From NCBI GenBank assembly GCA_001600815.1, contig BCKZ01000013.1:583621-647620 (forward strand): DNA of 64,000 nucleotides, given 5' to 3'. Source of the DNA: Alloascoidea hylecoeti (lineage: Eukaryota). Under the pieces are notes generated by a model. The model saw nothing but the letters and a program-made list of their open reading frames with translations. It made no database searches and had not been told where the DNA came from. The translations under genes and the position numbers were made by a program. Shown one piece after another: positions 1 to 43,141 of the stretch (position 1 is the first letter of the stretch; the number at the start of each line of letters is the position of its first letter).

Positions 1-3000
1 GGTTTCCGAATTAGAAGAAATCCAAGAAAAGATTCAGCGAGTTATACAATCTACAAATGCTACTGAATTTTCGATTGATATGAAACTTCGAAATTATATA
101 AGAAGATGTTCCAATGATAATCCTTATGTTGTAAAGCAAACTCTTGAAGAAATTAAAAAATATTTGATCTCAAACCAAGATCAATTTCTTACTTTAAAAA
201 GTGATAAATACAACACCTCAATCTCCAAGTTGGTGATGTCATTATTGGAGGTGATTAATAAATTCAAGGATAATATCACAGATATCCCAGCTCTTTCATC
301 TAATTGTTTGGGGCTTATAGGAGGCATAGATGTAAATCGATTTGATAGTACCAAAGAATCTGGTGATTTGATAATTCTCAGTAATTTCACTCAAGCTAAT
401 GAAAGTATTGATTTTGTTATAACATTTGTTCAAGACCATTTGGTGAGTCCTTTCTGGGCATCGGCAGATCCAGGAAAACAGTTATTCCTGGCATATGCTA
501 TGCAAGAATACCTCAGATTTTGTTCATTGACAGAGTCTGTTTTGAATGGAAATTTGCCGCGCGATTCACCAGAGGTGATTATGTGGCATAGTTTCAACGA
601 AATGTCCCGATCTACTTTAACTCCTTTGCTTAGTTCAAGGTACTCGGCTACTGTTTTAGCCCCGGAGCAAGTGACATATCCTATATATGATCTAACAAAA
701 ACCACCTATTCACAATGGCTTAGGAAATTTACTTTAGATTTACTGGGCCGTGCTAGAGGTCACAATTCTGAACAGATCTTTAGAGTTTGTCGTCGTATCA
801 TTAAAGATCAAGATTTATCTATTAGTTCATTTGTATTACCATATATTGCATTGAACGTTATCATTGATGGATCTGATTCCGAGAGAAAAAATATAACAAA
901 TGAAATTCTTTATGTCTTGAAAACAGATATATCATCTCTGGATAATGATTTGGCAGAGAGTTTAAGGTCATGTTATCAAACAATTTTTCTGCTAGTTGAT
1001 TATTTCAGCAAATGGTTACATAGTCATAAGCAAGCATCATCCTCTAAAAATCGTGGGCATACACTAGATCTTCCGTCTCCAGCAGCTATAGAGAACATAC
1101 TGGAAGTCATCCCATCAGAATTAATGGCGAAAAGATCAGCCGAATGTGGTGACTACCCACGAGCTATTTTGTACCTTGAAGAATGCTGGAGAGAATGGCA
1201 TGACGATCCAATTAAAAAGGATAAATTGACAAAAATTGATTTTAATGATACCATTCAATCAATGTATGCCAATGTTGATGATCCAGATTCATTAGATGGT
1301 ATATTTGTTAATTTTTCAAACAACAGTATCGAAGATAAAATCAAGCAATTAAGATATAGTGATAATAATTGGACTATGGCACAGGAATTCTACGAAACTC
1401 TTGACGATGTTAAAGGTGGTGATAAATATACCATTGATCTTTTAGAATGCTTAAATGAACATAGTATGCACGAAGAGCTTTTGAAACAAATAAATGAATT
1501 TATTGTTAGGAAAGATATCTCAGAGAGTGATATTCCACAAGAGTGGTTTGGTTTAGCATTAGAAGCATCATGGAGCACCGGCCGTCTTAATGAGATGAAA
1601 AAATGGATTAAATTGTCTGATACATCCCCAAACAGGAAAAATATACAATCATCATTTAACTTTAATATTTCAAAAACTCTTGTTGATTTATCCGAAGAAA
1701 ATTTGGAAGGAGTTGATGAATCATTAAAATGCTGTAGAGAAAAAATATGGATATCATTGACTTCAAAAACAATCAATTCTTTATCCCAATGTCGAAGTGC
1801 TCTAGTGAAACTCCATGGATTATCAGATTTAGAAAGTATTGCAAAATCATCATTGAGTGATGAAGATTTTATACCTGATAGTATCACAAGAATATTAGAT
1901 AACCGGATTTCCTCAGTGGGTGATGATTTTCAATCATTATGGTATTTGTTGTCTATTCGAAGATCTGCTGATATTTTAACAAGGTATGTTATCTGAATCA
2001 CTTTTTCCCTCCTTCCTTTTGTAATAACTAACATAATAAAAATTTTCTAGAAATGATTCTTTTCTTAAAGATGCAGTTTCAACTTGGACAAACAGTGCCA
2101 AACTTGCCCGAAAAAACGGCCGATTAGACCTTGCTATTAAATCCAATCTTCATTCTATTATCAACAATGATCCTGCAGGTACTGTTGAGTATGCCAAAGT
2201 ATTGTGGGCTCAAGAAGATCATAGAAAAGCATTAATCATAATGAAGGAAGTTTTAGAATCCAAAACTTCTCCAATCTTAGATAAATCAATAAAAGCAAAA
2301 GTTCAATTAAAATATGCCACATGGCTTGATGCATCGGCACAAAGTAATACATCAGCAGTTATTGAAGAATATCAAAAGGCAATCAAATTAAATTCTCAAT
2401 GGGAAAAAGGGCATTATTATCTTGGTCGTTATTATTTAAAAATTCTTGATAGTCAAGCAGCATTACCAAATGATCGTAGATCTAAATCTTTTAGAAATGG
2501 AGAATATTATCCTTTAATTTCAAGAAATTATTTAAGAGCTTTACAATATGGTGTTAAATATTTATACGAATCTTTACCAAAAGTAATGACATTATGGCTT
2601 GATTTTGCAGAACAAAATGAATTACAAAAAGATAATAGTGATCCGCAAATCCAATCTGGAAGACTTCATTATCTTCGAATATTAAACATTGAGATTCGGA
2701 AATTTTATAGAAGATTACCAAAATATTTATTTTATACTGTTTTCAATCAATTACTTTCACGTCTTTGTCATCCAAGTAAAGATGTTTTCAATATGCTTGC
2801 AGAAATCATTACATTGGTAACATGTGAATATCCACGTTATGTTTTATGGTTTTTATTTGCACAAAGTAAATCAGAATCCACAGAACGTTGTGAAAAGGGT
2901 AAACAAGTTCTTCGAATTGCTTTAAAATCAGATTGTTCAAAATCAATTTCAAAAGATAGTGGAGTTTCATTATTTTCATTTTTAGGATCTGCTGAAACTT

Positions 3001-4229
3001 TATATGATCAATTACTTCGAATTTGTACAACACCATATCGTTCCAAAAATAGTTTTGGAAGTTTAATAAGAGATTTCAAATTTGATCATAAAGCTGCTCC
3101 ATGTGGATTAGTTGTTCCAGTAAGGAAAACCATGTCATTAACATTACCAAGTGAACCAGCAGCAATTAAAAACCATCATGCATTTCCAATATCAACTAGA
3201 GTAACAATTGATTCATTTGAAGATAAAGTTGAAATTCTTCATTCATTACAAAAACCAAGAAAAATAGTAATTAGAGGATCTGATGGTAAACGTTATAATA
3301 TTTTATGTAAACCACATGATGATTTAAGAAAAGATGCTAGATGGATGGATTTCACAACAATGATTGAAAGATTATTAAATCAAAATCCAGAAACTGCAAA
3401 AAGAAAATTAGTTATTATGGGATACGCAGTTATACCATTAAATGAACATTTTGGTTTAATTGAATGGGTTAAAGGAACAAGAGCAATGAGAAATTTAATT
3501 CAAAAAGGTTACAATTCAAGACATATTAATATTAATTATACAAATTTAAGGCAAGCACTTGGTAATCCAAATATGCCATTAACAACAAAACTTTCAAATT
3601 TTAATAAATTATTAGATTATTTTAAACCTGTTTTATATACTTGGTTTATAGAAGCATTTCCTGATCCAAACTCATGGTATAGTGCAAGAAATAATTTTGC
3701 AAGAGCAACAGCAGTAATGTCAATGGTTGGTTATATATTAGGACTTGGAGATCGTCATGGAGAAAACATTTTACTTAGTGAAAAGAGTGGAGCAGTATTA
3801 CATGTTGATTTTGATTGCCTCTTTGAAAAAGGTATGGAATTAGAAGTTCCAGAACGAGTTCCATTTAGATTAACACAAAATATGGTTGATGCATGTGGTA
3901 TTAATGGTATTGAAGGATCATTTCGAAAGGCTTGTGAAGTAACAATGTCATTATTAAGAGCTAATGAAAGTACATTGATGAATATTTTGGAAACATTTAT
4001 ACATGATCCTGTTATCGATTGGTCATCAAAAAGACAAAAGAATAATGGTGGTACAACCAAGGGTTTACCTGAGGCATCCTTGCTTACTATTAGACAAAAA
4101 ATTCGAGGTATTTTGGATAAAGATGAGTTACCAATGAGTGTTGAAGGTCAAGTGGAGGCATTAATTTTACAAGCTACATCGGCTGAAAATCTTTGTCAAA
4201 TGTATATAGGGTGGATGTCATTTTGGTAA
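1..4229 (+). CDS. MEC1: PIKK checkpoint kinase Mec1/ATR, 5'-partial, one intron (1984-2050)
   Basis: Frame open from window start. The GTATGT..AACTAAC..TAG intron 1984-2050 joins the two ORFs in frame (…ILTR/NDSFLKDAVSTWTNSAKLARK). FAT region, kinase motifs KPHDDLRKD, LGLGDRHGENIL and HVDFDCLF, FATC ending MYIGWMSFW. Confidence 0.96.
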
Positions 4230-8673: not shown

Positions 8674-10191
8674 TCACCTAGCCTCCGGATCCTTCGAATG
8701 CTCATAAACAAAAACTTCTTCTAGATCTCCAGACTCCTTCGGTTCTAATAACCCTTTTTCTGCCATAATTCGGATATCTTCATGAACTTGTACTAGATCT
8801 GTATCCCTATTTTCAGGTCCCAGAAAAGTAATAAGAATAACATATCCAAAAGAACAACCCAAGAAAATAGCCATAACTAAAGAATATTGATACATACCTT
8901 CTTTTACATTACCTTCTTTATCATATAGTGGGAAACGAGATCCAATAGTTGCTTCAATAGTAGATGATGCAGAAGCTGCCAAATTCCCAAGTTGATAAGC
9001 CGTCCCAACAACAAATGATCTAAAATGAGGTGGTGATAACTCTGATAAATGAATAATAGTAATTCCCATATTACAACCTACAAAAAATTGTAAAAAAAAT
9101 GCTCCTGCTGCAATTGCTTCACTTTTAACAAATGCCCATGGATAAATACAAGCACCACCAAGAATACAACATATTATAGTTATAAATCTTCTTCCAAAAA
9201 TAGATGATAAATGTGTCATGAAAACTCCTCCCAATACACAACCTAAAGTACCCATTGAATTAACTAATGTTGATTTGTTTGCATTGAAATCTAATTCACT
9301 ACTTAATAATGTGGGATATAAATCCTGAGATCCATGAGCCATGAATTGAAAGCCTCCAATAAGAAGAACCATATAAACAATAATTAACCAATGTGATTTT
9401 AAAGCTAATAACATCTCGATTGTAAATGTTTTATCAGATTTAAATTTTCTTTCTGCTTTTTGTGCAATATATGCTTTTGTTTCTGGTAGTAACATTCTCC
9501 AAATTATAATTAAAACTGGTGGACCAGATGAAAACCAAAATAATGCTCTCCAACTATGTGAAGAATTAACAGTTATTATTCTATTAAAAATAACTACTAA
9601 AAGATACCCAAATGCATATCCACCTTGAAGTATTCCAGAAAGTTCACCTCTTGCTTCAATTGGACTATCATCAAGACAGAGAGCACTTGCATTTCCAAGT
9701 ACACCACCCATTGCAACACCAAAAAGGGCTCGAACAGCTAAAAATTGTTTATAAGTTGTAACAAATCCAGTACCTATTTGAATTATTGATAGTAACATTA
9801 AATTAACAATATATGGCCATTTTCTACCAAATCTATCACCTAAAAGTCCAAATATTGCAGCACCAACAGACCTAAACATTAGTACTAAAGTAATTCCCCA
9901 ACTAATATCATAATTACTAACATTTAATGATTTAGCAATTAATTTAACATTAACACCAACTGCAAAAAAATCAAACCCATCCCATATCCAACCAGCTGTA
10001 CCAACCATTATGAAATTCCATTGTTCTTTTTTAATACTTTTTAATGATGAAAATGGATTTATTGGTACTTTTGAATTTTTTATTTCTTCTCTTGATGGAA
10101 TTAATGTTGTAAATCTTGTTGAAAAATATTTTTTAATAGATGGCCATGTTAAATCAACACCAGGGTTGTTAGGATATTGATGGGTTTCCAT
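8674..10191 (-). CDS. JEN1: Carboxylate/H+ symporter, Jen family MFS
   Basis: WIWDGFDFF, SWGITLVLMFRSVGA, GDRFGRKWP, HGSQDLYPT and AYQLGNLAASASSTIE are Jen1/Jen2 signatures. Confidence 0.92.
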   Translation of the reverse strand: METHQYPNNPGVDLTWPSIKKYFSTRFTTLIPSREEIKNSKVPINPFSSLKSIKKEQWNFIMVGTAGWIWDGFDFFAVGVNVKLIAKSLNVSNYDISWGITLVLMFRSVGAAIFGLLGDRFGRKWPYIVNLMLLSIIQIGTGFVTTYKQFLAVRALFGVAMGGVLGNASALCLDDSPIEARGELSGILQGGYAFGYLLVVIFNRIITVNSSHSWRALFWFSSGPPVLIIIWRMLLPETKAYIAQKAERKFKSDKTFTIEMLLALKSHWLIIVYMVLLIGGFQFMAHGSQDLYPTLLSSELDFNANKSTLVNSMGTLGCVLGGVFMTHLSSIFGRRFITIICCILGGACIYPWAFVKSEAIAAGAFFLQFFVGCNMGITIIHLSELSPPHFRSFVVGTAYQLGNLAASASSTIEATIGSRFPLYDKEGNVKEGMYQYSLVMAIFLGCSFGYVILITFLGPENRDTDLVQVHEDIRIMAEKGLLEPKESGDLEEVFVYEHSKDPEAR

Positions 10192-10714
10192 TTTATCATT
10201 AAACTATGATAATCAATTTTCCATAAATTTTATTCAGATGTATGTTAAAATGTGAATTTCCGAAAGTTGGACTGAATTATAGGTAATTTATAATTGGTTA
10301 TAATGATAATATTTAATTTTTTAAGTGTTTGGTGGTTCCCTGCATATATACCGTATGCGTCCAATTTAAAATACGAGATGAGAAAAAATTATTAATTTCG
10401 CTATTTGAACGTGTTAATTTCGCTACTAATACACACAATTTACGTAGATGGATAGAACATTATTGGTGGGGACTTAAATACTATTAGTGAATCGTTTCAC
10501 ATTCATTCAGTAGAATTTGAATATCAGCATCTCTAAGAAACAGAAGATAAGCTAACTGGATATTTAAGTATTGCCACTTAAATTAAATTTAATCGCTAAA
10601 GGCGAGAGCGAAAATTCAAACTAACATTTTCTGTTCCTTAAATTCCAATCCGTTTTCAACGTCCATCGAGTAAACTTAAGTATGCAGGAATTCATGGATA
10701 TAATTTCGACCTTC

Positions 10715-10940
10715 ACCCATTGTGTTTATTATATGCCAGGGTGAACAACTGCTCCAACCAATTTTTTAACCTTACATATAATTTCCAATTAAAATATCTA
10801 AATAATTTAAACCTTCTAGCTAAAACTATTAAATTGAGGAAATCACTCCAAGGGTATAAAATCTCCGCTTCTTCTTTATCTCTCTTGTTTTCTCTTTTTG
10901 TTGTCTCATATTCATTGTATCTCTTTATATTATCACCATG
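10715..10940 (-). mobile_element. Possible third, highly diverged LINE 3'-end fragment (copy C)
   Basis: The minus frame IVLARRFKLFRYFNWKLYVRLK aligns conservatively with copy A ILISKNLKKYLVI*FNWKIYEKLK. The nucleotide motif TTTAATTGGAAAwTATATGwAArGTTAAAAAA (minus strand) is shared at 10762-10793 and 11585-11616. Confidence 0.45.
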
Positions 10941-11200
10941 TTATTGTATTTTTAATTTATTTTATTATCTCAGATATTTTGACAATAAAATACCCTAATC
11001 TATTTCATTTAATAGTTCCAGTGGTAATCCTCCAAATTTGATGCTTCTTCTAACTTCCAGTACCTTTGAGATGAAGAGGCCTTTCGTTTTTATATTTTTT
11101 TCATCTTTATCTATTATCAAATTTTTGATATCTATTGTTTCTAGTATTTTCTTTTTTAGTATTTTCACTGTATTACACTTTTCAACCAAATTTGTCTTTT
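10941..11200 (-). mobile_element. 5'-truncated non-LTR retrotransposon remnant (copy B)
   Basis: LVEKCNTVKILKK…KFGGLPLELLNEID*GILLSKYL is paralogous to copy A LFEDCSTIRILKK…RFAGTPPQILNEIDWGILISKNL (TGG>TAG). An A-rich tail TAATAAAATAAATTAAAAATACAATAA follows. Confidence 0.75.
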
Positions 11201-11414
11201 GTAGGTAGTGTGTCAAATATCAATCTGTGGGTTACCTCTAATGTAAAGGAACAATCATGACATCGTCATTATTTTGGGTATTCCTTTGATTATCATTTCG
11301 CGAGTCCATTTAACATTTCTTGGATGCATTTTATTGGTTCCTGAAAAACATTCCACAGTTCTTGAACTAGCCAGTTCGTAGATATATACAATTGTATGTC
11401 ATTCTTACCGCACA

Positions 11415-12495
11415 TTTAATATATTATTATGTTTATTACTTCTAGGACTGTTCCTATTAATAGCTTTTGGATTTATCTATATAAACGTAAGATAAATCCC
11501 ACTTTAAAGGATAGGAGGTTAGCTTTAATACATTTTTCCTGTTTAAGATCTTGATCGTCGTCTGTATCTGATTCCGCCTTTTTTTTTTTTAACTTTTCAT
11601 ATATTTTCCAATTAAATTATATAACTAGATACTTTTTCAAGTTTTTAGATATTAGAATCCCCCAATCAATCTCATTTAATATTTGTGGTGGTGTCCCTGC
11701 AAATCTAACATTTTTCCTTAGCTCTAGTGCCTTTTTGATAAAAGCCCCATTTTTTTCTATATGGTTATCTTTTGGATTTATTATCAATAATTTGATCCCA
11801 ATTCTATCGCTTCCTAACATCATCTTCTTTAGTATTCTTATGGTTGAGCAATCTTCAAATAGATGTAAGATGTCGTCTTTACCTTGTTGACATAAACTAC
11901 AAATATCAGATTTTTTTGCATTTTTTTGCATTTTTTGCATTTTTGTTAGGATGTAGCATATGAGTAACGTATCCCAAGCTGAGTAAATGTATCCATTGTG
12001 TCTCCTCAGGGTGTTCCTTATATGTTTCTTTGATAAATCCCCACCATTTCTTCCAATTTTCATTTTTTAGTTTAACTGCATTCATTTGTTTGGTTTCAAT
12101 ATAATTTTGTTTTTATTATACCACTTTTGGCTTATTGATTTAATTGAGTATTTGGATATGTTTTCTTCTTTCATGTCTTTTATTCTTTTTTCGATATCTT
12201 CTCCTGCTGGGTTTTCTACCAGTTTTTGTAACGCTTCATTTGTCAGTTTTGGTACCGTTTCAGTAGTTGGTATATTTCTTAGTTTTGTATTATTTATTAT
12301 TACTCTCCATGCTTTCAAGTATGTAATTAATCTCCCGTTAAACTTATTGTTCGGATTTACTGGAATAACTGAGTGTAAACTTAGGTTGGTATTATTTGAT
12401 AAATCACCTATCAAAATATTATACCAGTGAAAATTCAACTCTGTAAGATTATTTCGCCAGTTACATTTATTGTAAGCTATTAAGTGATTAGTAGC
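11415..12495 (-). mobile_element. 5'-truncated L1-clade (Zorro/Ylli-like) retrotransposon remnant, ORF2 C-terminus (copy A)
   Basis: Correcting two frameshifts (about 12082, and the AATGCAAAA repeat at 11911-11944) gives KPNKWNAVKLKNENWKKWWGFIKETYKEHPEETQWIHLLSLGY…ICSLCQQGKDDILHLFEDC, i.e. the C-x2-C-x8-H-x4-C knuckle found after the RT in L1-type ORF2. There is an A12 run at 11579-11590. Element ends are approximate. Confidence 0.8.
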
Positions 12496-12517
12496 TTACT
12501 TTATATCTAATGTCTTT

Positions 12518-12590
12518 GGGCGTGTGGCGCAGTTGGTAGCGCGTTAGATTTGCATTCTAAAGGTCTCTGGTTCGATCCCTGACTCGTCCA
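12518..12590 (+). tRNA. tRNA-Ala(UGC), intronless, 73 nt
   Basis: Cloverleaf: acceptor GGGCGTG/CTCGTCC with G3:U70, D arm GCGC/GCGC, anticodon stem TTAGA/TCTAA with TGC at 12551-12553, T loop TTCGATC. An oligo-T Pol III terminator follows at 12594-12603. Confidence 0.93.
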
Positions 12591-13392
12591 TTATTTTTTT
12601 TTTCAGGTTTGAACAACGGCTGGGTCCTCGATTCGTGGCGCAGCAGTTGAATCTTTTGTATCCTCTTCTGTGTATTTTCTTCATTTTTCATAGATAGCTT
12701 AAATGATAAGATTATTAGGGAAGGCAGAAGATCTGTGTTGTAATTACTGTTTACCGGAAAAAGTGAAAAAATTATTAACGGAGTCAGTTTCATCATTGTC
12801 AAGCTATCTTCTCAATCACAGTTCAATAATGAACTGGTTTTCAATTTTTTTATCTGGGTATTATTAGGATTTCCTTTCTAAGCATGAGATTATGAAAAGG
12901 GTTTTCAACGAATTCAAATAGATACGAAGAGCCATCAAATCTTACAGGTACCAATCGATATATATGATTCTCCTTCAAGTTATAGCGGAGGTTAATTTTA
13001 TATAGATTCTAAATATGAACCATATGATGATGTAGAGTCAATAATTGGACTATCAACATCTTCATTCGATCGTCCTTCTAGGAATGTATAGAAACAGATG
13101 GGCAAAGTGACTGTGAGGAGTAAGTGAACTAGCTTTTCTAGTTTTCAGGAGCATTTATACTGCGGCTGGACATATATGCGTTGGACCCATAGAAGAAAGA
13201 AAATACGTAATAGTCAAAGGGTCAAAGAATAAAAACTGATTATTCCATAAACGAAAAATAAATCATTAAATTACTAGATTAAAAGGGGCCATAACTTGGT
13301 AAGATAATTCTGTTGTACTGTACACATAATCAGCAAATATACGAGTACAATAATTATAGGTTATAAATTAGCTTCAAAAAAGTGAGGTGAAA

Positions 13393-13473
13393 ATTGCTCA
13401 CATTTGCTCACGATTTTACCAAATTGGTAACTACATCTAATTTGCTCATTGAAAAGTTATAAATATATATAAA
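13393..13473 (+). promoter_or_regulatory. Cluster of Mac1-type copper-response elements plus TATA-like element
   Basis: ATTGCTCA at 13393-13400, TTTGCTCA at 13403-13410 and TTTGCTCA at 13441-13448, then TATAAATATATATAAA at about 13458-13473. Confidence 0.5.
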
Positions 13474-13615
13474 GACAAATTGTCCTTCCATTTAAGTTAA
13501 GTGATTACTATATTTAAACCAACTAATTATACATTTCGATGATTTAAAAAATTAACAAAAAATTATAAGTGAACATCATAGCTGCTATTTATACAACGTA
13601 TAAGCAATATTCAGC

Positions 13616-14338
13616 TTAGAATAAAAATGAAACTAATCCGGAAAGAACACCAATAATAGCAACCGAACTTCCACTCACTTTCACACCAGAATTTGAAATA
13701 GGAGCTGTGTAATTAGATGAAACTTTCTTAATATTGGCACAAGCAATTCTTGTGGTATTCTTAAAATGGATGACAATGCTTCTTCCAATTGGAGATTCTG
13801 CTGAACTTTCATCCTCATTGAGACTGATGTATGGATGGATATAATTGGCGGTAAATGGATCTTGGGTGATTTTACCATGGACACCAGCCAAGTCTCCAAT
13901 TTCACAGGTTTCTGGCTTGGAGGAATCACATACATTGGGGGGTGAAGCAGGAGCGCCGTATGGATTTAAATGAGCTAAAGTTGAAGCACAACTTCCATTA
14001 GCTGGGACAGGATCGACGTGAACTAGAAAAATTGTAATTGTTAGCAATCGGTGTTATTTAAGAGTTTTACCATTTCTTGAAAACTTACTGTGATAAGAAA
14101 ATGGACCTCCGGCGGTTGGGAAATCTTTCAAATCAACTGTTACTTCAACAGTTCCATTTGAAGTAGAGGAGAATTTAACATATCCGGAAATTGATTTTTG
14201 AGGGCCGCTGGCAGGGAAATCGGCTTGATACACAAGACCAGCAGGAGAATTGGCAAGTTCAGCAGCCGAGGTAGAAGCCTTGACAGTTTCCAAAGAAACA
14301 ATGGGTGCGACGAAAGAGAATAGAGTTCCAAATTTCAT
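13616..14338 (-). CDS. Secreted GPI-anchored Cu-only superoxide dismutase (Sod4/5/6 family); intron 14023-14088
   Basis: Splicing GTAAGT..GCTAAC..TAG restores FSYHIHVDPVP. Also AHLNPY, CEIGDLAGVHG and SIVIHFKNTTRIACANI, with an N-terminal signal peptide and a C-terminal hydrophobic GPI signal; 218 aa. Confidence 0.92.
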
Positions 14339-17300
14339 TTTAAATAACGTTTAATCGAGTAATGAAAGAAGGAGGAACTTTTAATTTATTTATAGTAAAT
14401 GTTTTTTTAAAAAATTTACTTTCGCTAATTTATTGAGCAAGGGAGGAATATGAAGTGCCTCAATTGTTTTGAAATTATCACATTTATTATTAAACTTTTT
14501 GTGTAATACAGAAACCTAATTATGGCTATCACTGAAACCTCATAAGATGGCAATACACTTAACACAGTTGAAAATGGGCTACATAAACTGCCTTCAACAA
14601 TATTTATAATTATCCAATTTGATTTTATATTTTGTATGAGGGGAGACTTAAAACTTTGTTGCTCTCAGGTTCTCTTTTTGTGTCTTGAAGTTGTTAGTTG
14701 AAAGCTTATTTTCAGGGACAACTGTGGCTACAACAATGGCATATCTAATCGATCATCTCGCAGATTACATATACGAGATCTACATGTTTACTATGCGTTA
14801 TTATTCAGCAACTTGCTTTTTTTCTTTCACTAAGAATGTACTAAATTTTTTGATTAAATTTAAATTAAACAACATATCTAAGTTTATGTTTTGAAATAAC
14901 AACCATGAGATTAAGTGACCCTCTTGATTCTTGAGCTGTTGATAATGAAATTATGGTGAAATGATCAAATTTAATTGAAAGAACGTGAAGTTTCAATTAT
15001 AGTTTTAATTGCTAAACTTTTTTTCGGCGCTTCTGAATACTTTAAATTTATACTACCACTCTAATAATTGCAACAATAAATGGATAGCAATACTAGTAAA
15101 ATTATGAATCGCAATTGATATTTATCGAATATTTTACTTTTGAAAGAATCGACAAGTGCATATAAATTAGCATCTATTTACTTAATACTTATAATGTAAT
15201 ATGAGCTATGGTTTGTTATTGGTATAGAGAAGAGAGCTATCAGTGATCGCCCAATCTTACCTCCTTATATATGGCGTTCCCTTCATTCCCACTGAAAGTA
15301 TATTGGCTGTTTGATTATAAATTTTCATTTTGGTAGATTGATCGATCATCCATTAATATTGTTAGGCACGCTTGCTCTGAGTGCTGTATGCTAAAATGGA
15401 GTTGACCCAAGCACTTGACCTTCGGTTCTACTCGTGCGATTCTATTTGTACTACAGTTATATGTAAAAATAAACCGCCGTGTAGTTGCAATTCAAGGTTC
15501 ATTATAAAAACTTCACAATTATGGATTAGATGGAGCATCTTTTAGCTTATTTTTGAAAAACGGTGCGTTAAAGCTTGATCTTCTTAGCCTTCTTAGCAAC
15601 ACGATTCAATTTGATTGAATTTTAGTGGTAAAATATAATATTTAATTATAGCGGATTGCTCAAGATGCATGTAGCTGGATAAGTTAATATGTATTCATAA
15701 TTTCATAGAATTATAACGTATATGCAATTAGTATTAATTACGGATTAACGATCGGCCAGTCTCGATGTTTTACATTCTATGTTTCTACCCTATAATTATA
15801 ACTTATACCGGCATATTAACGAATTCTAATCAATTATAAGACATAGGTATATTATTTATTTTTTTATATTTAGTTATTCCAAAAGGTTTGATAGTCATCA
15901 ATTCCGGTAATCTCGGCTCGAAAGTGGTTGAAGGGAAACAAATATTAATCTCAATTAAAATACACCACAAATTTCAGTTTTATAGTTCCAAGATATATAT
16001 TTTCCTGGTATGACTCCAATTGTGCCTCGATATAATTTCTGGTATTGGATTCTGGGTATCGGCACTATTTTAAAGCTACAAGTCGTTTACAAGCCCACAT
16101 CTCCGAAATAAGTATGGGAATCGAAAGCAGCATCATGACGTGAGCCATTTAGTCATTTACCACAATCTGACAAAGCTGCTGACTGTCCAGTATATCCACT
16201 AATAAGCTCAGAGTTTCTACAGTTTCAGTGATGCAATTCCATAAGCAACTGAAATTTGTTCTTCAATTAATTGTTTTATTTAATACATTGGGAGAAAACA
16301 TTGATAAAGATCCAGAATAACATTTTTATATCCCGGCACTGCCTAAAAAAGTCATGAATAAGTACAGATTTGCATTGGAACATCATATATATCCTTTCAA
16401 GTAAAACTACCAACTTCTTCAAAATTAAACACATAACCTTGTGGCTTGTTTAGTAGTTACTCAGAAACAACCTCCTAATACTTGTGCGTTTATTTCTCAG
16501 AACTCAGAAGCGGTTTGGATACCAGGTGCGAAGTCTTACAATCTCTTTTCTTTTATAATTAAAGCTATCTTGAACCCATTTTGTGATCTTGGCCATCTTG
16601 TCTCGATATTTACTCACCATTTGGGTCTTTGGATGTATGACCAAGTAAGGGTAGAATTGATACTATATAAGGATCTGCTTCGAATTCCATCACTAAACCG
16701 AATTGCTTTCTCTTTTTATATTTTCGTTAGTTTGAAGGAGTTGAAGCTACACCAAGTCACCATATTTAAAAATCTTTACAAAATCTGTGAAGACCCAGTT
16801 TAGAGAAACGTAACTTTTATATGTTCATTGTGGATCACTAGAGAAAGCGGAAATAGGTTACGTAACTGCACTTATGCCACAAGTGCACACATCACAGGAT
16901 CACATTTATTTTCTGAAAAGTTACCAACTCCCCTCTTCTCTTCTTTTACTTTCTACATCCCACCAAATAAATTAAATTCTTCTTTTTAATATTTGCAGTC
17001 GTGTTATAAACATCCCCAAAAAACTGTGAAAAGTGTATATTGCTATTTTTACTTCTGTAACTATTGGAAAAATAAATCAAAGCTTCGGTTTTTAAATTAA
17101 TCAGTAAGAACAAGAATAGAAGAAAATATAGGTATATTATTTTTCTGCTTATATTATTGAAATAATTAGAATAAGACAGCCTACCACTGCCTGTCCTCTC
17201 GAGATTAATATAAAGTACTACCGTATAATTCGTTGGTAAGAGAATTTAACAGAATCATAGTTGTATTGAAAATCTTAAAAAGCTGGATAATAACAACAGC

Positions 17301-30681: not shown

Positions 30682-30983
30682 GTTTGACGACAAGCGACTT
30701 GGAAGCAAAAATTATTCAGCTGCAAACACTTGTCTGGGTGCACGGGTGTTTGCGTGTACGTACTTGTGGATCCGGATTTACCTACCTCAATTGCAAACGC
30801 CGAACTTGAAACGGCTGACGGCATCCGATGGCAAGCACTCTAATTATAACTTAATACAGCATACAAGATTTGGGTTTAGATTAAATGCGATTGAATTAAC
30901 TTTATTACTAGAATTATAACAACACTATTTCATATCTGTATATTAATATTAATTATTATTAATCATTAGACCAATTACTTCAA

Positions 30984-31217
30984 TTAGATCAACATGGCAA
31001 TGGCGGCAGCGGCAGCGGCTCCAGCACCGGCATAGACACCGGCAGCGGCTCCAGAACTTGAAGAGGCAGAGGCAGATGCGGAGGCAGAGGATGAGCCCGA
31101 AGATGTGGCGGATGAAGAACCAGAAGATTTAGCACCGACTGTTTGGGTGGTTGTGAGAATGGCAGCGTTGGCAGAGGCAACAACGGCGGCGAGGAGAACG
31201 ACAGATTTGAATTGCAT
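30984..31217 (-). CDS. Small Ser/Ala-rich GPI-anchored cell-wall protein (77 aa)
   Basis: Signal peptide MQFKSVVLLAAVVASANA, S/T-rich core, omega site GAAAG and hydrophobic tail. GC-rich codons; TATA-like TATAAA about 125 bp upstream. Confidence 0.85.
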   Translation of the reverse strand: MQFKSVVLLAAVVASANAAILTTTQTVGAKSSGSSSATSSGSSSASASASASSSSGAAAGVYAGAGAAAAAAIAMLI

Positions 31218-34200
31218 TGTGATGTGTTGCGTAATGTGGTAATTAAAGGAGGATCTGAAGAATAAGTTCGAATTCGAGGAAGAACGAAGGAGAGATGGAG
31301 AAAAAAGAAAAAAGGGGAAATCAGCAAAAACCTTTGCTTTTATATGAAATACCGATACCGATACCGATGGAAGAAGCTACCCGGACAGATATAGCTGTCA
31401 GCCATATTATAATTATAATAGAAGAAAAGAATAATGAACTGCCGACTGCGTTTCCGAGTCGACGTTATGTTTAACAGCCCCGTCCGGGTTCAGTCATTCT
31501 TTTATTGAAAATATATTTCCATTGTTGTCTTTCAATAATTAATTAGAATGAGAACAAAAGTAAAAATATAGAAATGTTGGTCCGACCTTTTTTTGCTTGG
31601 GGTTCCAGGACCTTAACCCAACTCCTCCTTATATCGTATATTCTAGGGGAATACGACAATTCCTCCTCACAAAGGATTTGGATTCTTAGGAAATTTGGAA
31701 TCTCATGATTCTATATCACTACGACTACCTCTTCTTAAATTATATCCCCTTAATCCTTTCATCAATGCATCCAATAATGCAAAATATGCTTATTTATTAT
31801 TCCAAGATAGGCTAATTCAATCTTGCAATTGGAGCAGCTAAAATATCTGATTTAAATTTTGTTCACACACTACAAAATAATTTATGGTGCTTTACTTGAT
31901 TATATGTGTTCTTTTGAATCTGGAATCATCTTTAGTGAATATCATTTCCATTTTTATTAATATGTGCATAGAGTTATAAACTTTTTACATTATTAGATTA
32001 CCCAATTAGTACAGTTGATATTTCCGGGTGTGTGGGTGTTGCATGTACTACTACCCTTTCAATTCTCATTCAACCATAAATTCTAAAAAGTCCATGGAAG
32101 ATCCAACCATGCCAACTCACTCATTCATTGGCCATTGCAGATAGCTAAACAAGATAAATAGGTCATTACATTTACAATTGCAGCTAGCTTTTAAAATTCC
32201 AAAATTTATATTTAAATGTAATCTGGGAAATAAGAATGTTAGCCAAATGTTTAGCTAGTTATACTTTTATGTTTTGTTTAATAATTATAATTATAATATT
32301 AGATCAAGCTTAACGGCGCAAGAACACTTGGAACTTGGAACTTGAAAATATTGATATATTTCTTTCTCGATATTTGTAAAAAGGCTTCGATGTACTTGGC
32401 AAATAAAGAATGCATATATGTCTGATAACAAGAAATAATAATTAATAGGTTTACAGAAACACCAAAAATGCAGCAAGCGATTTAACGACTTTCGTTCGTC
32501 AAATCTTCAATGAGTGAATTCAATATCTGGTGTTGTTTATACGTATCATATCTACATAATTCGTAATACATTAATCCCAAAACATAAATAAACATTCTCC
32601 TATACAGTATAAGTCTAGTGATAGATCTCATGAATTGATTGGTTTAAATTCAACTTTTAAAGGTGTATGATCTATTACTTTGCAGTAACTAAATGGATAT
32701 TACTGCTACAATCAATATTGCAAGCTGAGTCTGTCTTCGAATTCAAATGCCAAGCTTTGACTGATTAGCTATTATGTGAAATTGCCGTGCGTGTTGTAAT
32801 CTTTTTGTCGTCATACTCGTATGCATCTCAAACATTAAATTATAAAAGAGTAGCAGAGCAATAAATAATATTAATCACCAAATTCAAACTTCAAACCGTT
32901 TAATTACCTGCCCACCCGATTACTTGAAACTTTTGAGCTTTTTCATTGGCTCAAAATTTTGATCCGCTCCTCACGTGCACACCTCTGACCGCCGTGTTGC
33001 AGGTGTCATTACTCGAGCTCAGTAATACTCACTGGGGTTTTCTCGTAGCTATGCTCCATGGCAATGATTAATTAATTACCAAATTAAATTGATACTTCTA
33101 CACTTTTTATTAAGTTTTTATTGAACAAATTAGAATTTTAATAGTACTAATAAATTTTATTAATCGCATGGTGATATACAATTTGGCGTTATTTTAAGCT
33201 TACGAGGTAATAGTGCAAATGAAAATGACTGTATTTGAAAATTTAATATGCCGCGCGATATTGAGGTTCAATGTTCACCCAGATATATTGTTAGTAATAA
33301 TATGATAATTATATAATGTTATGTAGGAACTTAAGGCTGGCTTGTTATTTTCCTCGAAGGTTGTAATTGTCTTCAGTCGCACTGAATATTTAGCGAAAAA
33401 AATAGTAGAAACGTTGTAGAGTCAATGTAGATCTACTCTTCAACATGCATATGATCATCATTCATTGATACCATTTCATCATGAATTGAAATATTTCAGC
33501 CAGCCACATAAACCTACCATCGGTTTTAATAAATAGATATCATTTCATGTCGTTTATCGCAATTGTAGTATTGGTATTCAGGTGGCATTAGTAGGGACTA
33601 GATCTAGATTTCAGACCATCCACTGGCACTCAGCCATATCTTCTTCCACCCATGTCATAATAAATACATACAAGCTGTACAGGACCTACAGGTACTATAG
33701 CTACAGGCAGTTGTGTTGAAATTATCAGCCAGCCCAAAAACATTATCTTGCATGAAAAATATTTTTTCTTAAGTTTTGAAAGTATTTTATCGACTCATGA
33801 ATATGTTATGAGTCTTATGACTGTTATATTTCTCAAGCTAAAATACATCTTAATTAAGCTTATATTCATATAAATTTCTTTTAAACAGATAATATTGAGA
33901 ATTACATTTTTAAAAGCTTCCAATCATATTCTCATGTAATGTAGTATGTAGTTGAATGTACTAGTGCATATTGTGCTTGCAATTAAGGTTGTTTTGGGAT
34001 ATTACATCTTTGTAATGATCACAATAATGATCACCAAACGTTTATAATTCCTTGTGGGCTATGAAAAATAATTAAATTTAATATCATGGTTTTGAGAATC
34101 GTAGATAAATTTTATGTGCAATTGGTTCACTATTGATATACTGTATCTTAAGATTGAAAAGCCTATATTTTAAATTTACACATCTAGATCTAGCTATAAT

Positions 34201-34599
34201 ATGTGGTTCTTGTAAATGAAAAGTTGACTAATTAATTACTATGGATATATAAATAAGTTATTGCAAAATTTAGACATGGGTATGTATATACAGTTGTACC
34301 ACATATCAGGAACATGATTTTCAATAGAGGGTAGCGAAACGTGAATGATGATTGTGTGACAATTATCCATTAAAAAAAACATATTAAAAATTAGTTAATT
34401 GAGAGATAATATAACTTATAGCAAAAACTTATTTGATAGATTATATACCGTCAATTTCATAGAACTTGGATGTGTTTACATATTCGGATGTACAACATTG
34501 TTATGTTGTAACCACGAATTACAAACTCAGCAACAAATAGATACTATCACTAAAATCTACTTAATCTCATAATTTTGATGATACTTGTATAGCACACTC

Positions 34600-35060
34600 T
34601 TTTTATATTCTTTGTTGTCGTGTGAGATTTCTTCATACGAGCTAGCGTATTGAGCTCACTATATCCAATCTCCCGACACATTTTTCTTTGGTATTCCGGA
34701 AGACTTATGTATAATCAGGGCTTTCATTCTCTTGGATATCTGAATTCCACTTCAAATGGGGTTTAAGGGAATTTTGAGAATACTGGTGAAAATATGGGAT
34801 AATAAAGCTTGCTGCGTCCTTTTGATGTGATTTCTCCAAACGGGTAATTCATTATCAGATCGATGTATATGTTCTGAGACTACGAGATCAGATATTCAAT
34901 GTGTTTTGAGATTCTCCAACCACATTTCTAAAATTTCTTTCAAAAACTCTGGGGATTTCTGTTATTTGGCAAAATCTTCATATAAAGTGGATACCTCTTC
35001 TTCATTTTCACCCACCCAAACATGTAATTCAGAAACGACAGTTTTAGGTGTTATATCCAT
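34600..35060 (-). pseudogene. Decayed coding sequence, family unknown
   Basis: From ATG 35060: MDITPKTVVSELHVWVGENEEEVSTLYEDFAK*QKSPEFLKEILEMWLENLKTH*ISDL…; after a frameshift, FEVEFRYPRE*KP*LYISLPEYQRKMCREIGYSELNTLARMKKS. Confidence 0.4.
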
Positions 35061-36957
35061 CGTCTTCTGATATATTGTAATAAAAACCTTTTTTTTTTTT
35101 GAGGCCTGTGGTTGATGGGATTTTTCAACCTTTTCTCTAGTTATAAAACACTTGCATTTATCGACCAGTATGTGGTGAAATTAAGACTCTAAAATTAAAT
35201 GTGTACCTGTTTCATCAAAGGTCCAATTATGAGAGATTTGTGACGTTTCAATTGTATTGAGAAAACCTCGAAGTAATGCATATGTAGTACTATTCGCAAA
35301 TATATTTTGGATGCTCGCTTAAAAATCTTTACTCAAATTTTCTGGTTCTTTTATTTTATGTAAAAGTTTAGATTGTCTTGCACTGACCAGTATGTGATAT
35401 TTTGGGGAACAATAATGCTTTTGTTTTGTGTTGGCAATTTTTGAGACGGATCTTTTTTCACGCGCTCATCAACCAGGTCATTAAGACGCTCTATATTAGC
35501 GGACACAAACATTTTTGTACAAAACTAAAACTCTTCTATTGAGATCTTGATTTTCATTAGTTTATAAAAGTCTTTAATTTTAGCGGAAGTCTCATTTTGA
35601 TAATTTACCGTGGAAGTAATCGTCTAGAGTCGATTTTGAGATACAAGAGCTGGATTTGTTGGATATTAACAAAAGACATATCTCATGTATCATCTCTTAT
35701 TCAAACATTTGAAATTATGCTTTAATTTGATCATTCTCATTCATTAGAGCCCGTGTACATTAAATTCTGTCGGTGATTTGGTGGTTATTTTAAAAATTGA
35801 ACTTTTTTGGATTTTGGATAGTCATCCAAAACTTATAGATCTTCTCAATTCTCACACCACACTACGATAATCAAGACTATTCTTTGGTTATATATATGAT
35901 AGTGGCATAACGCGTTTTATGAATGGATCTTTTGAGCTCAATGAGCTAAGATTTAGAAAATTTCTGGCAGCAAAGAAAAGATTAAAAAGTGCTTATAAAC
36001 AAATATTATCAGAATTATGTAAGTTCATTTTAGTAAATATGAAAGATCTATTTTCAATTGATTGGATTGAAGAAGGTATGGTTTGAAGAGTACGTTTGTT
36101 ATGTTGAAATGAGTTATCATTACACCTTTTGAATGACTACTTATCCTCGATGAGAAGCAAGTTTTGACTGAAAATTTTCTTTCGACAATTGAACTGGTTT
36201 CAGTTTTAAATGGGGTGATGTTATAACAAATCTAAACTAAGTTGTTCAAATGTTACAATTTAAATTTAAGGGGTAGTAAACCTTATACATATGCCTGGGG
36301 TATCAGTATTCAAAGATACATATTACCCAATACTACCCATACCATGCAATGACTTAACCCTTAAACATTGAAACTAATGCCTTTATCTGAAATGATTCTT
36401 CACTTAGATTTATTATGTTAGTGAGATTAACAACTGAACCAATAAATAGGCATGCGTAACGAGAAACTGGTAATTTACCCGCAACCAAATAAGGCAACAT
36501 GTCATTATCATCAATACCATATTTAGTGTGCAAGATGTATGATAATATCTCTGATAAGTCAATAAATTGGTTAAAAGTCAGATATTTAAGTTTATGGAAC
36601 TGTTGAGATAACTTTATTTAGATATTGGTTCAGTTTCCTGTTCTGATGAATTCTCTGTTATACAGTGTATTGCCATATTGTATCCACAGTTTATATGGAA
36701 ATTTAGAAGTAATAAAAATCTCGAGGAATATAATTCTGAAGAAAATTTAATCGCTTAAATACATACAAAACATTATTCAAAGGATGTATACTTGTAGGCG
36801 CGGCCCTAATTACTTGCAAAATTATTGCCATTCATGACCCAAGATATGCGAATTTATGATATCTTATAAAGAAATTTATTAAATTTATAAAATTTTTACA
36901 ACCTAATATTAATGCCTCCTCTCTTTTAACGAGTTCAAAGATTTTTCAAAGTCCTTT

Positions 36958-38317
36958 TCATTTTCTGATGTTGGCAATAGTATTAGCTTTAACTCTGGCC
37001 ACAGCTGTGTGACCATCATCTCCATTACCCATATAATAAGCCACCTGTCCAGCAACAATAGCTGCAGACATTGAAGTCCCAGAATAAGCAACATGCTGGT
37101 TGTCATCTATAATTCAAAGTTAGAGAGCTAAAAAAACCAAATGGTATCTGTTTTGTTGGAACATACTTAGAGATAAACTTGTAACGTTAACACCGGAAGT
37201 GAATACATCAACACATGATCCATAGTTGCTGAAATGCGCAATTGTGTCATCATCGTCATCAATTGCCCCCACAGTGAGTGCTTCATAAGCAGAAGCTGGT
37301 GATCTTTTACAAGAGGCTACTCCTTTATTTCCAGCGGAGGTAATTATAGGTATTCCAGTTTCCACAAGAGCTTCAACAGCGTTATTCAAAATGGTATTAA
37401 TTCTCATATCTAGAGCAATAATAGCTGTGGAAGGTTTTCCTGTAATCTTTTGCGAATCTGATACATATTGCAAACCTCCAAGAATTTTTGATATAGAAGA
37501 TTTCCCATTTTTACCAGCAACTTTAACTTCAATAAGGTTTGCTTTCTTAGACACACCGAAGGTGGACGATCCGATTAGCCCAGCAACATGAGTGCCTGTG
37601 TATTAAATAGTTGGTATTAGTAATAAGTGGTTATAAGTTGAATTATGAGGGTATTGGTAAAACACACCATGACCGTTTTCATCTCCTTCTCCTTCTCCAG
37701 TAAAATCAGACCCAAATCTTGTTCTTGGAGCCAATTCGGGATGAGACAGTTTGATTCCTGTATCCAAGACATAAACATCAACTCCATTTCCAGAAGTACC
37801 ATCATACTCATACAAAAGTGGTGCTATACATTTATTAATGAGTTAGAAATTTGATTTCTGTTGAGTAATAAGAAAAACGCTTATATCTTTGGAAATATAC
37901 CTTGACCAGGGGGCAACTTGGAATCACTAGAAAGTTTGGCAAGATGACGAGGTGCATCTTTTTGAACATCTTGAATAGTCAAAACTCGGTCCTGAGAAAT
38001 TGATATAACCTGTAAAACATAATTTAGGCTATTATTAGAATAATAAATGGTATTAATTAGCAGATCTTTAAGAAATGGCATACAGATTTATCAGAAACTG
38101 CTGCTTTCAAAAGCTCTTGAGTGAACTCTCCATAAACTCCCAAAAAGTTCCCAAATTCATAGAAGGCTTCTATTTTCTCCAAAACGGGGTAGGAAGTTCT
38201 TTCATGCTGTTTAATAAAAGATTCCACCGATAAACCTGGCGCTAATTGGATCACATATTTATTCGCTGCCAACGAAAGGGTAGTGAAACAGAGCAGAGAA
38301 ATAGATTGTAATAACAT
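36958..38317 (-). CDS. Subtilisin-like (S8, proteinase K family) protease, Rrt12/Osw3-like; exons 38084-38317, 37901-38009, 37668-37823, 37167-37595, 36958-37106
   Basis: Four introns restore signal peptide, I9-type prodomain, QKDAPRHLAKLS, and the catalytic triad VLDTG / NGHGTHVAG / GTSMS plus oxyanion SAGN; 358 aa. Confidence 0.88.
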
Positions 38318-41300: not shown

Positions 41301-41614
41301 CGGTAACCACGACAACTTGAGTAAACGCGAGAAATGCAACATGAACAAACAGCCCAAACAAGTAATTTAGGATCTATGCATCGTAGCTTAGATCTTAAAA
41401 TCTCTTTCCTATTTTGATTGATCACCAAACAGGAAACTTCCTAGTCCGTGAAATATAAGATATATATCCAACCATTAAAGAGTTCCATTTCTGTCCCATT
41501 TTTCTTCGACTTCCAGAATTATTTGTCTTTTCCATTCTTTCTTTCTTTCTTTTGGGGTTCTCACTATCGTTCACTATTTTATAATAAACACTCTCTAAGT
41601 TACTAAGCTTCTAA

Positions 41615-43141
41615 ATGTTTCCAGTTACCCAAAACAAAAATCTGATTTTCGATACAACATTGTGGCTGAATCCAATGGGCCCTCCAATCCCTCTCAAGTC
41701 AAAAGCATATCCTTCCATCCTGGATAAACACGAAAAAGAAGCTGCAAATATTGTAATAGATGAATATCAAGAAGAGATTGTATCACATTTATCATCAATG
41801 GAACATCTTTCTAACATTGATATCTATTTAATTGACATGCAGCCAGAAATACAATGGCACATGAGGCCATATCTTTTGGACTTTCTTATCGAGTCCCATC
41901 TGTCATTTAGACTAAAATCAAAAACTTTATTCCTTGCCTGTAATATTATTGATAGATATTGTGCAAAGAGAGTGGTTTTCAAACGCCATTATCAACTTGT
42001 TGGATGTACTGCATTATGGATAGCTTCAAAATATGAAGACAAAAAATCTTTAGTACCAACATTGCATGAGTTGGAAACGATGTGCCGCGATGCTTATAAC
42101 GAGGAAATGTTTATTCAAATGGAGTCTCATATCTTAACAACCCTAGACTGGGTGATGAACCCACCAACTATTGATGATTTTTTACAATTTTCAATTTCAT
42201 CAACCGAATGCCCGGAATTATCTCCAGATTTTACAAACATTGATAGACAAAATTGTCCTTTGATCTCTCAGATTTCTCCCAATAAAACTGTTTATGCAAT
42301 TACTGCCATAGCGAGATACTTCTGCGAAGTATCCCTCTACCATAGATCTTTTCTTACCTTCTCTGCTTCAACCATTGCTATAGCTTCACATATCCTAACA
42401 AGCCAAATTTTAATGCTATCAACTAAACCTAAAACAACAATACCTGGAATGAAAGAGAATCCAGATTCTGAAGCACAAATAGCAAAGTGTATCTCGTTGC
42501 TGTTAAAACTAGCCCCTACTTCTTCTCCATATCTCCAGTCTAAATATACTGATATTGGTGTTATAACAATTGTCAAGAACTTTTTCACAACCTGTACCAC
42601 ATCTTTTACTGGTTCCTCTTTTAATGTTATAACGCAAAAGACACCTAATGGAAAACCGTTGAACAATTCTTCAGCATTGAGCATTGATTTTAAAACACAT
42701 ACCAAGACAATTGAATATAATCCCGGAACTCAACACCAATATTCGCTCCCCACCCCTGTAACACCTCCACACTCAGAGAGATCAAGCTCCTTTTCATTTT
42801 CATCTAAAAGTAGTCTGGTTCTCACTCCACAATACGCTGACTCCCCTTCTTCTTCTATCGGTAGCCCCGTTCAAACTTCCGCGCCTAAAAGATGCAAATT
42901 GAACTCATATTCCAAGTATAGAAACTCCTCTGTTACTTCCTTAAACCTAAAGATTAAACCACTGAACAGGAGGTATTCACAAATTTCAGATAATAGTTAT
43001 TACACTACTGAACTCAAAAATGTTAACACTAATTTTAAAAATGATCAGGAAAATATTAATATGAAGAGTAAAAATCCAAGGACCAGTTATCAGAGATTTT
43101 CATTATCTTTGTCAAGAGATGAAAATGTCAATTGCAATTAA
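41615..43141 (+). CDS. G1 cyclin (Cln/Ccn1 type) with PEST-rich C-terminus
   Basis: QPEIQWHMRPYLLDFLIESH, IDRYCAKRVVFKRHYQLVGCTALWIASKYED and FIQMESHILTTLDW; multiple S/TP sites in the tail. Confidence 0.92.
   Translation: MFPVTQNKNLIFDTTLWLNPMGPPIPLKSKAYPSILDKHEKEAANIVIDEYQEEIVSHLSSMEHLSNIDIYLIDMQPEIQWHMRPYLLDFLIESHLSFRLKSKTLFLACNIIDRYCAKRVVFKRHYQLVGCTALWIASKYEDKKSLVPTLHELETMCRDAYNEEMFIQMESHILTTLDWVMNPPTIDDFLQFSISSTECPELSPDFTNIDRQNCPLISQISPNKTVYAITAIARYFCEVSLYHRSFLTFSASTIAIASHILTSQILMLSTKPKTTIPGMKENPDSEAQIAKCISLLLKLAPTSSPYLQSKYTDIGVITIVKNFFTTCTTSFTGSSFNVITQKTPNGKPLNNSSALSIDFKTHTKTIEYNPGTQHQYSLPTPVTPPHSERSSSFSFSSKSSLVLTPQYADSPSSSIGSPVQTSAPKRCKLNSYSKYRNSSVTSLNLKIKPLNRRYSQISDNSYYTTELKNVNTNFKNDQENINMKSKNPRTSYQRFSLSLSRDENVNCN

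Follow-up and report, generated by a model that had tools for sequence, protein, structure and literature searches.

Stacked LINE fragments upstream of a tRNA-Ala gene in Alloascoidea hylecoeti: a candidate landing pad of a tRNA-gene-directed retrotransposon in a budding yeast

Why do the remnants of a long interspersed nuclear element (LINE) lie stacked in front of a tRNA gene, all facing the same way? The question is raised by a stretch of 64,000 nt of DNA from the yeast Alloascoidea hylecoeti (BCKZ01000013.1, 583,621-647,620, forward strand), called the window below; the positions of features are window coordinates. All three LINE fragments within these 64 kb, here named A, B and C, form one same-orientation stack at the sole tRNA gene, and the best-preserved of them, fragment A, is the closest to it. 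The three are on the minus strand and the gene, tRNA-Ala(UGC), is on the plus strand. This gene, which the initial annotation of the DNA had placed beside the fragments, is borne out by both ARAGORN and Rfam and is the only tRNA or other Rfam match in the whole window. Likewise, tblastn and blastn searches found no further copies in the 64 kb, as the same annotation had noted. The explanation preferred here, to which a probability of about 0.6 is given, is that the locus is the landing pad of a tRNA-gene-directed LINE in a budding yeast, similar to the TRE5 elements of Dictyostelium. A wider claim is favored by a slightly narrower balance of the evidence: that a budding-yeast LINE evolved, independently of the dictyostelids, a sequence-independent integration in fixed orientation ~60 bp upstream of tRNA genes, which would be the first such case in the fungi. 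By analogy, such a LINE would presumably dock on the RNA polymerase III (Pol III) pre-initiation complex.

Fragment A is a 5'-truncated, poly(A)-tailed insert with a target-site duplication, and it landed in an older repeated sequence. It contains the last ~280 codons of open reading frame 2 (ORF2), including a CCHC zinc knuckle (~11848-11901), followed by a 3' untranslated region (UTR) of ~25 nt. Its poly(A) tail has 12 nt and is seen as twelve T on the plus strand at 11579-11590 (A on the strand of the element). Upstream of the tRNA gene, the minus strand has stop-free pieces at 12082-12495, 11906-12112 and 11617-12066, and the last of these carries a C-x2-C-x8-H-x4-C motif. The Pfam family zf-RVT matches fragment A with an E of 5e-4 and 21.1 bits, which is under its gathering score of 27.5. 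At a cut of E <= 0.01, three of 11 family sequences match zf-RVT (E 3.5e-4 to 9e-4; 20-22 bits), all of them below the 27.5-bit gathering score.

The ends of this insert were delimited by comparison with relatives from outside the window. When 1.84 billion representative proteins were searched with a C-terminal query of 149 amino acids, eight matches were obtained at E <= 1e-3, and seven of these are short ORF fragments of 63-159 amino acids from assembled contigs. Word-based searches added P0009, P0010 and P0011. The outside set comprises 11 ORF fragments, namely P0001-P0005, P0007-P0011 and the odd P0006. At the nucleotide level, 77-80% of the words sampled from 9600-13600 occur in two runs of one sample and in a run of another study, and a wood-decay metagenome run contains a similar share. 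The contigs of four public runs were aligned to 9600-13600 at a likeness of at least 80%. In the comparison of A with P0011, homology breaks at ~12447, ahead of the residues TELNF: of the 33 residues that follow the break 29 agree, compared with three of the 12 that precede it. In run X3 one contig passes from 11574 straight to 12455 and so omits 880 bp; four letters at this joint fit both sides, and its depth is 52.5 versus 8.44 for the flank. The X1 and X2 contigs reach 11578 and continue with letters like those from 12459 onwards, and the mirror-image loose end before 12451 is present in 4-5 contigs per run. The uninterrupted form of the site that is found in the public runs X1-X3 is a paralogous copy of the repeat, not an allele.

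The LINE homology of A therefore ends at ~12447-12454, and its target site is situated 59-63 bp upstream from the first position of the tRNA. The initial annotation had read the fragment as open to 12495, only 22 bp from the tRNA gene, and this has to be corrected; the 41 extra open bases are a chance extension and not LINE sequence. Consistent with this, the similarity of 12455-12516 to A is at chance level (local alignment, 200 shuffles; z -1.2). At least the left part of this spacer is a portion of the older repeat interrupted by A, as indicated by the joint from 11574 to 12455 and by the loose end behind 11578. The search for target-site duplications that had been proposed at the outset yielded one for A, 4 bp long (CGCC). 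The nicked site, TCCGCC/AGTTAC on the plus strand, is without an A- or T-run and is not A/T-rich, which argues against a poly(A) targeting of the kind known from Zorro3 of Candida albicans. The marks of target-primed insertion, a 5' truncation, a poly(A) tail, a duplication and an empty site, are thus present in A. Fragment A is nevertheless dead. It lacks 7 bp after 12071 that are found in other copies (P0010 and the X3 and X5 contigs). In addition, a short GCATTTTT-type repeat at ~11916-11945 contains an indel, which results in the second frame change of A. P0009 reads unbroken across the site of the frame change. The GCATTTTT-type repeat stands where other copies have codons (KQWWH in P0009), and the X2 and X3 contigs have a loose end at 11915.

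A second tRNA locus appears to share the geometry of the first. P0004 is the only outside ORF fragment, of 11, that reaches past the 5' end of the LINE: its first 96 residues are non-LINE, and LINE homology runs from ~residue 96. Residues 41-80 include an island in which the first two codon positions are rich in G+C (0.5-0.7, versus ~0.3 on either side). This island of ~31 residues contains the hexapeptide PGVEPG (residues 51-56), which can be encoded only by DNA whose other strand forms a 5-bp stem with a TTCGACN loop, that is, a T-arm. In the matching frame, the antisense strand of the tRNA-Ala gene in the window reads SGIEPETFRM, compared with PGVEPGIFRC in P0004. Between the island and the start of the LINE there are ~18-23 codons, and the spacer from the putative tRNA 5' end to the LINE 5' end comes to ~54-69 nt, depending on the length of the tRNA. 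The ORF reads the candidate tRNA in antisense and then the LINE in sense. Since the spacer peptide of P0004 is unrelated to the spacer in the window, the tRNA locus is a different one. At both of the two readable junctions (those of A and P0004, but not of B and C), then, the LINE begins at about the distance from the mature tRNA, ~40-65 bp, that would be expected of a TRE5-like element. A single site placed uniformly in the 28 kb of non-ORF DNA of the window would land in the interval 40-70 bp ahead of the tRNA gene, in this orientation, with a probability of ~5e-4, a post hoc figure. The guidance by tRNA genes and Pol III factors that was originally proposed gains in this way from the repeated geometry in P0004 and from the position and composition of the site of A, while a preference for tRNA genes across the genome, a tether and the kind of endonuclease are inferred.

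Table 1. Coordinates of the features at the tRNA-Ala(UGC) locus, in window positions.
Feature	Position	Strand	Basis or remark
Fragment C, short 3'-end piece of a third variant	10762 to ~10935	-	Last 43 bp match the 3' end of A
Fragment B, 5'-truncated copy of a second subfamily	~10949-11198	-	tblastn and blastn against A; match to P0007
Older repeated sequence	11204-11574 (+ 12455-12517)		In other copies, 11574 is contiguous with 12455 onwards
Target-site duplication of A (CGCC), second copy	11575-11578		Directly after the poly(A) tail; repeats 12455-12458; joint listed with 4 letters fitting both sides
Fragment A, 5'-truncated LINE copy, 876 bp	11579-12454	-	ORF pieces, outside copies, contig joints
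Spacer, 63 bp, from the 5' junction of A to the tRNA	12455-12517		First 4 bp (12455-12458, CGCC) are one copy of the target-site duplication of A
tRNA-Ala(UGC) gene	12518-12590	+	Rfam RF00005, 61.4 bits; ARAGORN 12517-12591, anticodon tgc

Stacks of this kind are not confined to the window. Between 316 and 394 contigs per run fall on 10762-12547 (394 in X1, 320 in X2 and 316 in X3), and the single-copy flank depths are 21.9, 9.55 and 8.44, respectively. In X1 the summed contig depth, which is a rough proxy and not a copy number, rises toward the 3' end of A from 296 at 12280-12413 to 1985 at 11610-11743, a gradient that fits a family of 5'-truncated copies. Among the 15 joints listed, of 44, eight directly connect a C-type fragment, which is cut somewhere between 10792 and 10932, with the poly(A) beginning of a further copy (11581-11600). 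These joints have single-copy depth and are seen in two or three runs. Head-to-tail stacks thus recur at at least eight other loci, and further stacked junctions in the contigs have unrelated spacers of 13-38 nt between the copies. Repeated insertion next to a fixed landmark would be expected to produce stacks of one orientation.

Based on the analogy with Dictyostelium TRE5-A, the following series of steps may be envisaged. The family, a high-copy, poly(A)-tailed one, would aim at positions ~60 bp ahead of tRNA genes and insert in the opposite orientation to them. The RNA-protein particle of the element would be tethered to the Pol III initiation complex on a tRNA gene, and the target would be nicked at a fixed distance upstream of the gene, whatever its sequence. 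The RNA would then be copied from its poly(A) end by target-primed reverse transcription, which would mostly stop early and leave 5'-truncated, dead copies. Repeated hits at one tRNA gene would place new copies beside or inside older ones, all in the same direction.

Several points weigh against this model. The window was chosen because of this very feature, and the inference draws on two informative 5' junctions (A and P0004). The tRNA of P0004 is deduced from peptide only, that is, from the T-arm-compatible hexapeptide, the G+C-rich island and the parallel with the antisense tRNA of the window; a cloverleaf test on degenerate back-translations was without power, given that 267 of 300 and 456 of 1000 shuffles were equally good. 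If B inserted in the older repeat, which the TTGTA repeat would suggest, it landed ~440 bp or more from the tRNA gene. The searches brought up neither endonuclease nor reverse-transcriptase nor ORF1 sequence of the family. Additionally, the junction between an A-type 3' end and 11457-11578 is found in other places too, at ~95% identity (contig records 14 and 21), and this could reflect either a targeting of the older repeat or a duplicated composite. The same junction would follow from position-specific integration if the older repeat lay at a fixed distance from tRNA genes. Finally, head-to-tail stacks could also result from insertion into the poly(A) tails of resident copies.

The best-surviving alternative is a LINE without any target preference. 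Dead copies would simply persist in tolerant intergenic DNA and pile up there by nesting, and the tRNA gene would be a coincidence or a marker of a gene-poor safe zone. Nests of LINEs are common, fragment A is truly nested in an older repeat, and the small number of informative junctions and the post hoc choice of the window would both be in keeping with such an origin. However, other ORF-poor stretches of the window (12.6-18.4, 25.2-29.0 and 30.8-41.6 kb) are without any copy. Moreover, two unrelated loci share the orientation and a spacer of ~55-70 nt to the tRNA, each such junction having the low chance probability given above, and only one opposite-strand joint occurs among the 15 listed (of 44), where random nesting predicts about half. 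An untargeted element thus seems rather unlikely, though it is the first competitor of tRNA targeting.

A sequence- or tail-specific LINE is less probable still and must be regarded as doubtful. Such an element would aim at the older repeat or at A-rich tails, in the manner of Zorro3, and the repeat would merely happen to lie near this tRNA gene. The recurrence of the A-type junction with 11457-11578 in other contigs and the frequency of head-to-tail joints are what it would predict, and the targeting of poly(A) by Zorro3 is described in the literature (PMC7175516, PMC3956500). The insertion sites tell a different story: that of A is flanked by CGCC and has no run of A or T, the spacer of P0004 is unrelated to 12455-12517, and stacked copies elsewhere are separated by unrelated spacers of 13-38 nt.

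The two remaining fragments bear on whether the insertions were independent. Fragment B is truncated inside the zinc knuckle, contains stop codons and has an A-rich tail at its end. Its secure homology covers 10968-11195, with 48% over 77 amino acids (E 7e-17) and 67% over 193 nt relative to A; in local alignment with A it reaches a z of 11.5, a score attained by none of 200 shuffles. In the same control, four pieces without secure LINE homology (12455-12516, 11400-11574, 11204-11399 and 10805-10948) gave z values between -1.2 and 0.1. The outside copy P0007 resembles fragment B more (79% over 42 amino acids) than A does (46% in that comparison), which indicates that A and B belong to different subfamilies, each with copies elsewhere. 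The relatives of A are P0001-P0005 and P0009-P0011, with identities of 55-91%. For fragment C, only 10762-10804 is demonstrably homologous to A, matching its 3' end (11585-11627) at 86% over 43 nt (E 3e-8; z 10.4, none of 200 shuffles). The upstream part of C, 10805-10948, has no significant similarity to A (z about 0, 200 shuffles). There is a 6-nt A-run at 10762-10767. The segment 10772-10935 recurs as a genomic unit, in X1-X3 contigs of 164-171 nt, and the flanks before 10762 differ among copies (agreement ~0.5).

The initial annotation described two clear minus-strand 3' fragments of an L1-type ORF2, and probably a third, in head-to-tail order. Of this, A, B and the last 43 bp of C are real, and the L1 label is tentative, but the arrangement is partly nested, with A inside the older repeat. 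The proposal of independent insertions at one tRNA gene holds up, given that B is nearer to P0007 than to A, that A has its own duplication and tail, and that an uninterrupted form of its site exists. That A, B and C are instead diverged local tandem duplicates of a single insertion, which their adjacency and shared orientation might suggest, is ruled out for practical purposes by these subfamily relations (A is 73-91% identical to P0001, P0002, P0003 and P0010), by the duplication and tail of A and its splitting of older sequence, and by the differing lengths and 5' truncation points of the fragments.

A 5-bp direct repeat, TTGTA, flanks B (10944-10948 and 11199-11203). By itself it is not significant, and as a target-site duplication it was rejected for being too short or too post hoc.

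The older repeat split by A has a less certain origin. The upstream half of B as first annotated (~11204-11400) was taken for LINE sequence, and 11255-11400 for ORF2 sequence of B; this reading is tentative, for the similarity of the segment to A is at chance (z about 0) and no family ORF matches it. More generally, neither blastn nor tblastx detects a likeness between the older repeat and A, local alignment scores no better than with shuffled sequence (z about 0 for both 11400-11574 and 11204-11399), the repeat has no tblastn match from any family ORF, and no TG..CA ends as of a long terminal repeat (LTR) are seen by eye. It may still be a badly decayed LINE piece, as formerly thought. In one frame, with several stops, it holds a C-x2-C...H-like string that had been taken for the zinc knuckle of B. 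Fragment B has its own remnant of the knuckle motif, ~10 codons beyond this string, and the two are hardly from one copy, which is a reading of the translations without statistical support.

Two further observations concern this repeat. In all four runs a contig of single-copy depth joins 11334 to 11451, skipping the 116 bp at 11335-11450, so either there is a paralogue of the older repeat without this 116-bp piece or the copy in the window gained it. In addition, a 7-bp direct repeat, TGTCTTT (11193-11199 and 12511-12517), brackets the older repeat plus A, and its right copy abuts tRNA position 1. The per-site probability is 1.3e-4 before correction for the positions tried, and the repeat may be due to chance. 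If TGTCTTT were a target-site duplication, an earlier element would have inserted within 7 bp of the tRNA, and B would once have been directly beside it. As evidence for such a duplication it was set aside, being too short or too post hoc to count.

The family to which these fragments belong is not close to any deposited ORF2 in its C-terminal region, as judged from sequence comparison. A full-length ORF2 was not found among the 1.84 billion representatives, and a search for longer proteins was also empty. P0011 extends the family toward the reverse transcriptase, reaching only the segment after that domain. The odd match, P0006, has 2550 amino acids, and 13 of its stretches align with the query containing the zinc knuckle (32% identity); it has no Pfam family and could be either a low-complexity artefact or a protein made of repeats. 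In metagenome contigs, 179 stretches matched the family pattern and none was confirmed, and a 29-nt pattern from the 3' UTR had no matches in metagenome, prokaryote-genome or viral contigs. A profile search of the PDB with the zinc-knuckle alignment gave only chance-level matches (E 0.4 and 2.5). The AlphaFold2 model of P0009, built from eight sequences, had a mean predicted local distance difference test score of 48.3 and was unusable. As weak leads, the look-alikes of P0011 in the ESM Atlas are unnamed eukaryotic clusters, some clusters of the Prp8 U5-snRNA-binding domain, and clusters of which 13-21% of the members have zf-RVT or RVT_1 at low scores.

The gene content of the window, which has a G+C content of 33%, is typical of a budding yeast: Pfam searches of its ORFs identified MEC1/ATR, CCZ1, SHE3, NRD1, TAF2, DSL1 and ORC5. 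The ATR/MEC1-like kinase is present as two long ORFs on the same strand, 80-1996 and 2241-4229, with the FAT domain divided between them, which suggests an intron or a frameshift. A T-run after 12591, directly 3' of the tRNA gene, represents the Pol III terminator. The nearest gene downstream of the tRNA consists of two adjoining open frames on the minus strand (13619-14350; 145 and 98 amino acids) that resemble the two parts of a single secreted or cell-surface protein, signal-like at its N-terminal end and hydrophobic at its C-terminal end. The 10.8 kb at 30820-41620 are without an ATG-started ORF of 100 codons and, despite the low gene density, without a LINE fragment. Within them, pieces of a subtilisin-like protease lie on the minus strand at 37123-37842 and 38060-38416, apparently broken up by introns or through decay.

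Targeting of tRNA genes is a textbook case of how mobile elements survive in compact genomes. Among elements that use target-primed reverse transcription, the accessible portions of two reviews describe it only from dictyostelid amoebae (PMC5911963, PMC5006619). The tRNA-targeting non-LTR elements named in the part of the 2018 Pol III review that was available are TRE5, TRE3, NLTR-A and NLTR-B, all dictyostelid, with upstream distances of 40-54 bp for TRE5, in opposite orientation, 2-6 bp for NLTR-A and 39-64 bp for NLTR-B (PMC5911963). TRE5-A is described as ending in an oligo(A) tail and as having two ORFs, the second of which encodes a zinc-finger domain at its C terminus (PMC5911963, PMC5006619). 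The distances at the two loci described here are similar to those of Dictyostelium TRE5 and Polysphondylium NLTR-B. As with TRE5, the element is antisense, its 5' end faces the tRNA, and it has a poly(A) tail, along with a CCHC knuckle. In contrast to both, the host is a budding yeast and not an amoebozoan, and the likeness is one of geometry and features, without a demonstrated sequence relationship. If true, it would be a case of convergence.

The L1-like LINEs of yeasts offer a second comparison. Zorro3 integrates into poly(A) tracts and so has poly(A) at either end, while a subtelomeric location is given for Zorro1 and Zorro2 (PMC7175516, PMC3956500). Ylli of Yarrowia lipolytica is without recognised target-site duplications and, in the parts of the source that were accessible, has no link to tRNA genes described (PMC5014426). 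The present family is like Zorro3 and Ylli in its poly(A) tail, frequent 5' truncation and C-terminal ORF2 zinc finger (PMC3956500, PMC7175516, PMC5014426). Unlike either, fragment A is flanked by a duplication of 4 bp that is not made up of A/T, and it stands ~60 bp in front of a tRNA gene. The zebrafish LINE Dewa is described as specific for the spacer of a repeated tRNA-Leu array (PMC3706591). Dewa and the present family are both LINEs associated with tRNA gene regions, but here two tRNA loci with unrelated spacers are involved. No fungal tRNA-directed LINE was found in the full-text literature, with subscription journals outside its coverage.

A parallel in terms of niche is provided by LTR elements. 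Ty1 and Ty3 of Saccharomyces cerevisiae, Tca8/beta of C. albicans and Tyl3 and Tyl6 of Y. lipolytica likewise occupy the region upstream of Pol III genes and leave pile-ups of dead copies. However, these are integrase-based elements with duplications of 4-5 bp and TG..CA ends, whereas the fragments in A. hylecoeti are poly(A)-tailed and 5'-truncated and carry a LINE-type zinc knuckle.

For the annotation of A. hylecoeti, stacks of this type account for long "empty" regions upstream of tRNA genes. If the tRNA-directed LINE is real, the niche of Ty1 and Ty3 would have been reached independently for a third time, and the element would allow a direct comparison of integrase-based with nick-and-copy docking on Pol III factors. 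Such a system would also be amenable to yeast genetics, as Zorro3 is reported to retrotranspose in S. cerevisiae (PMC7175516).

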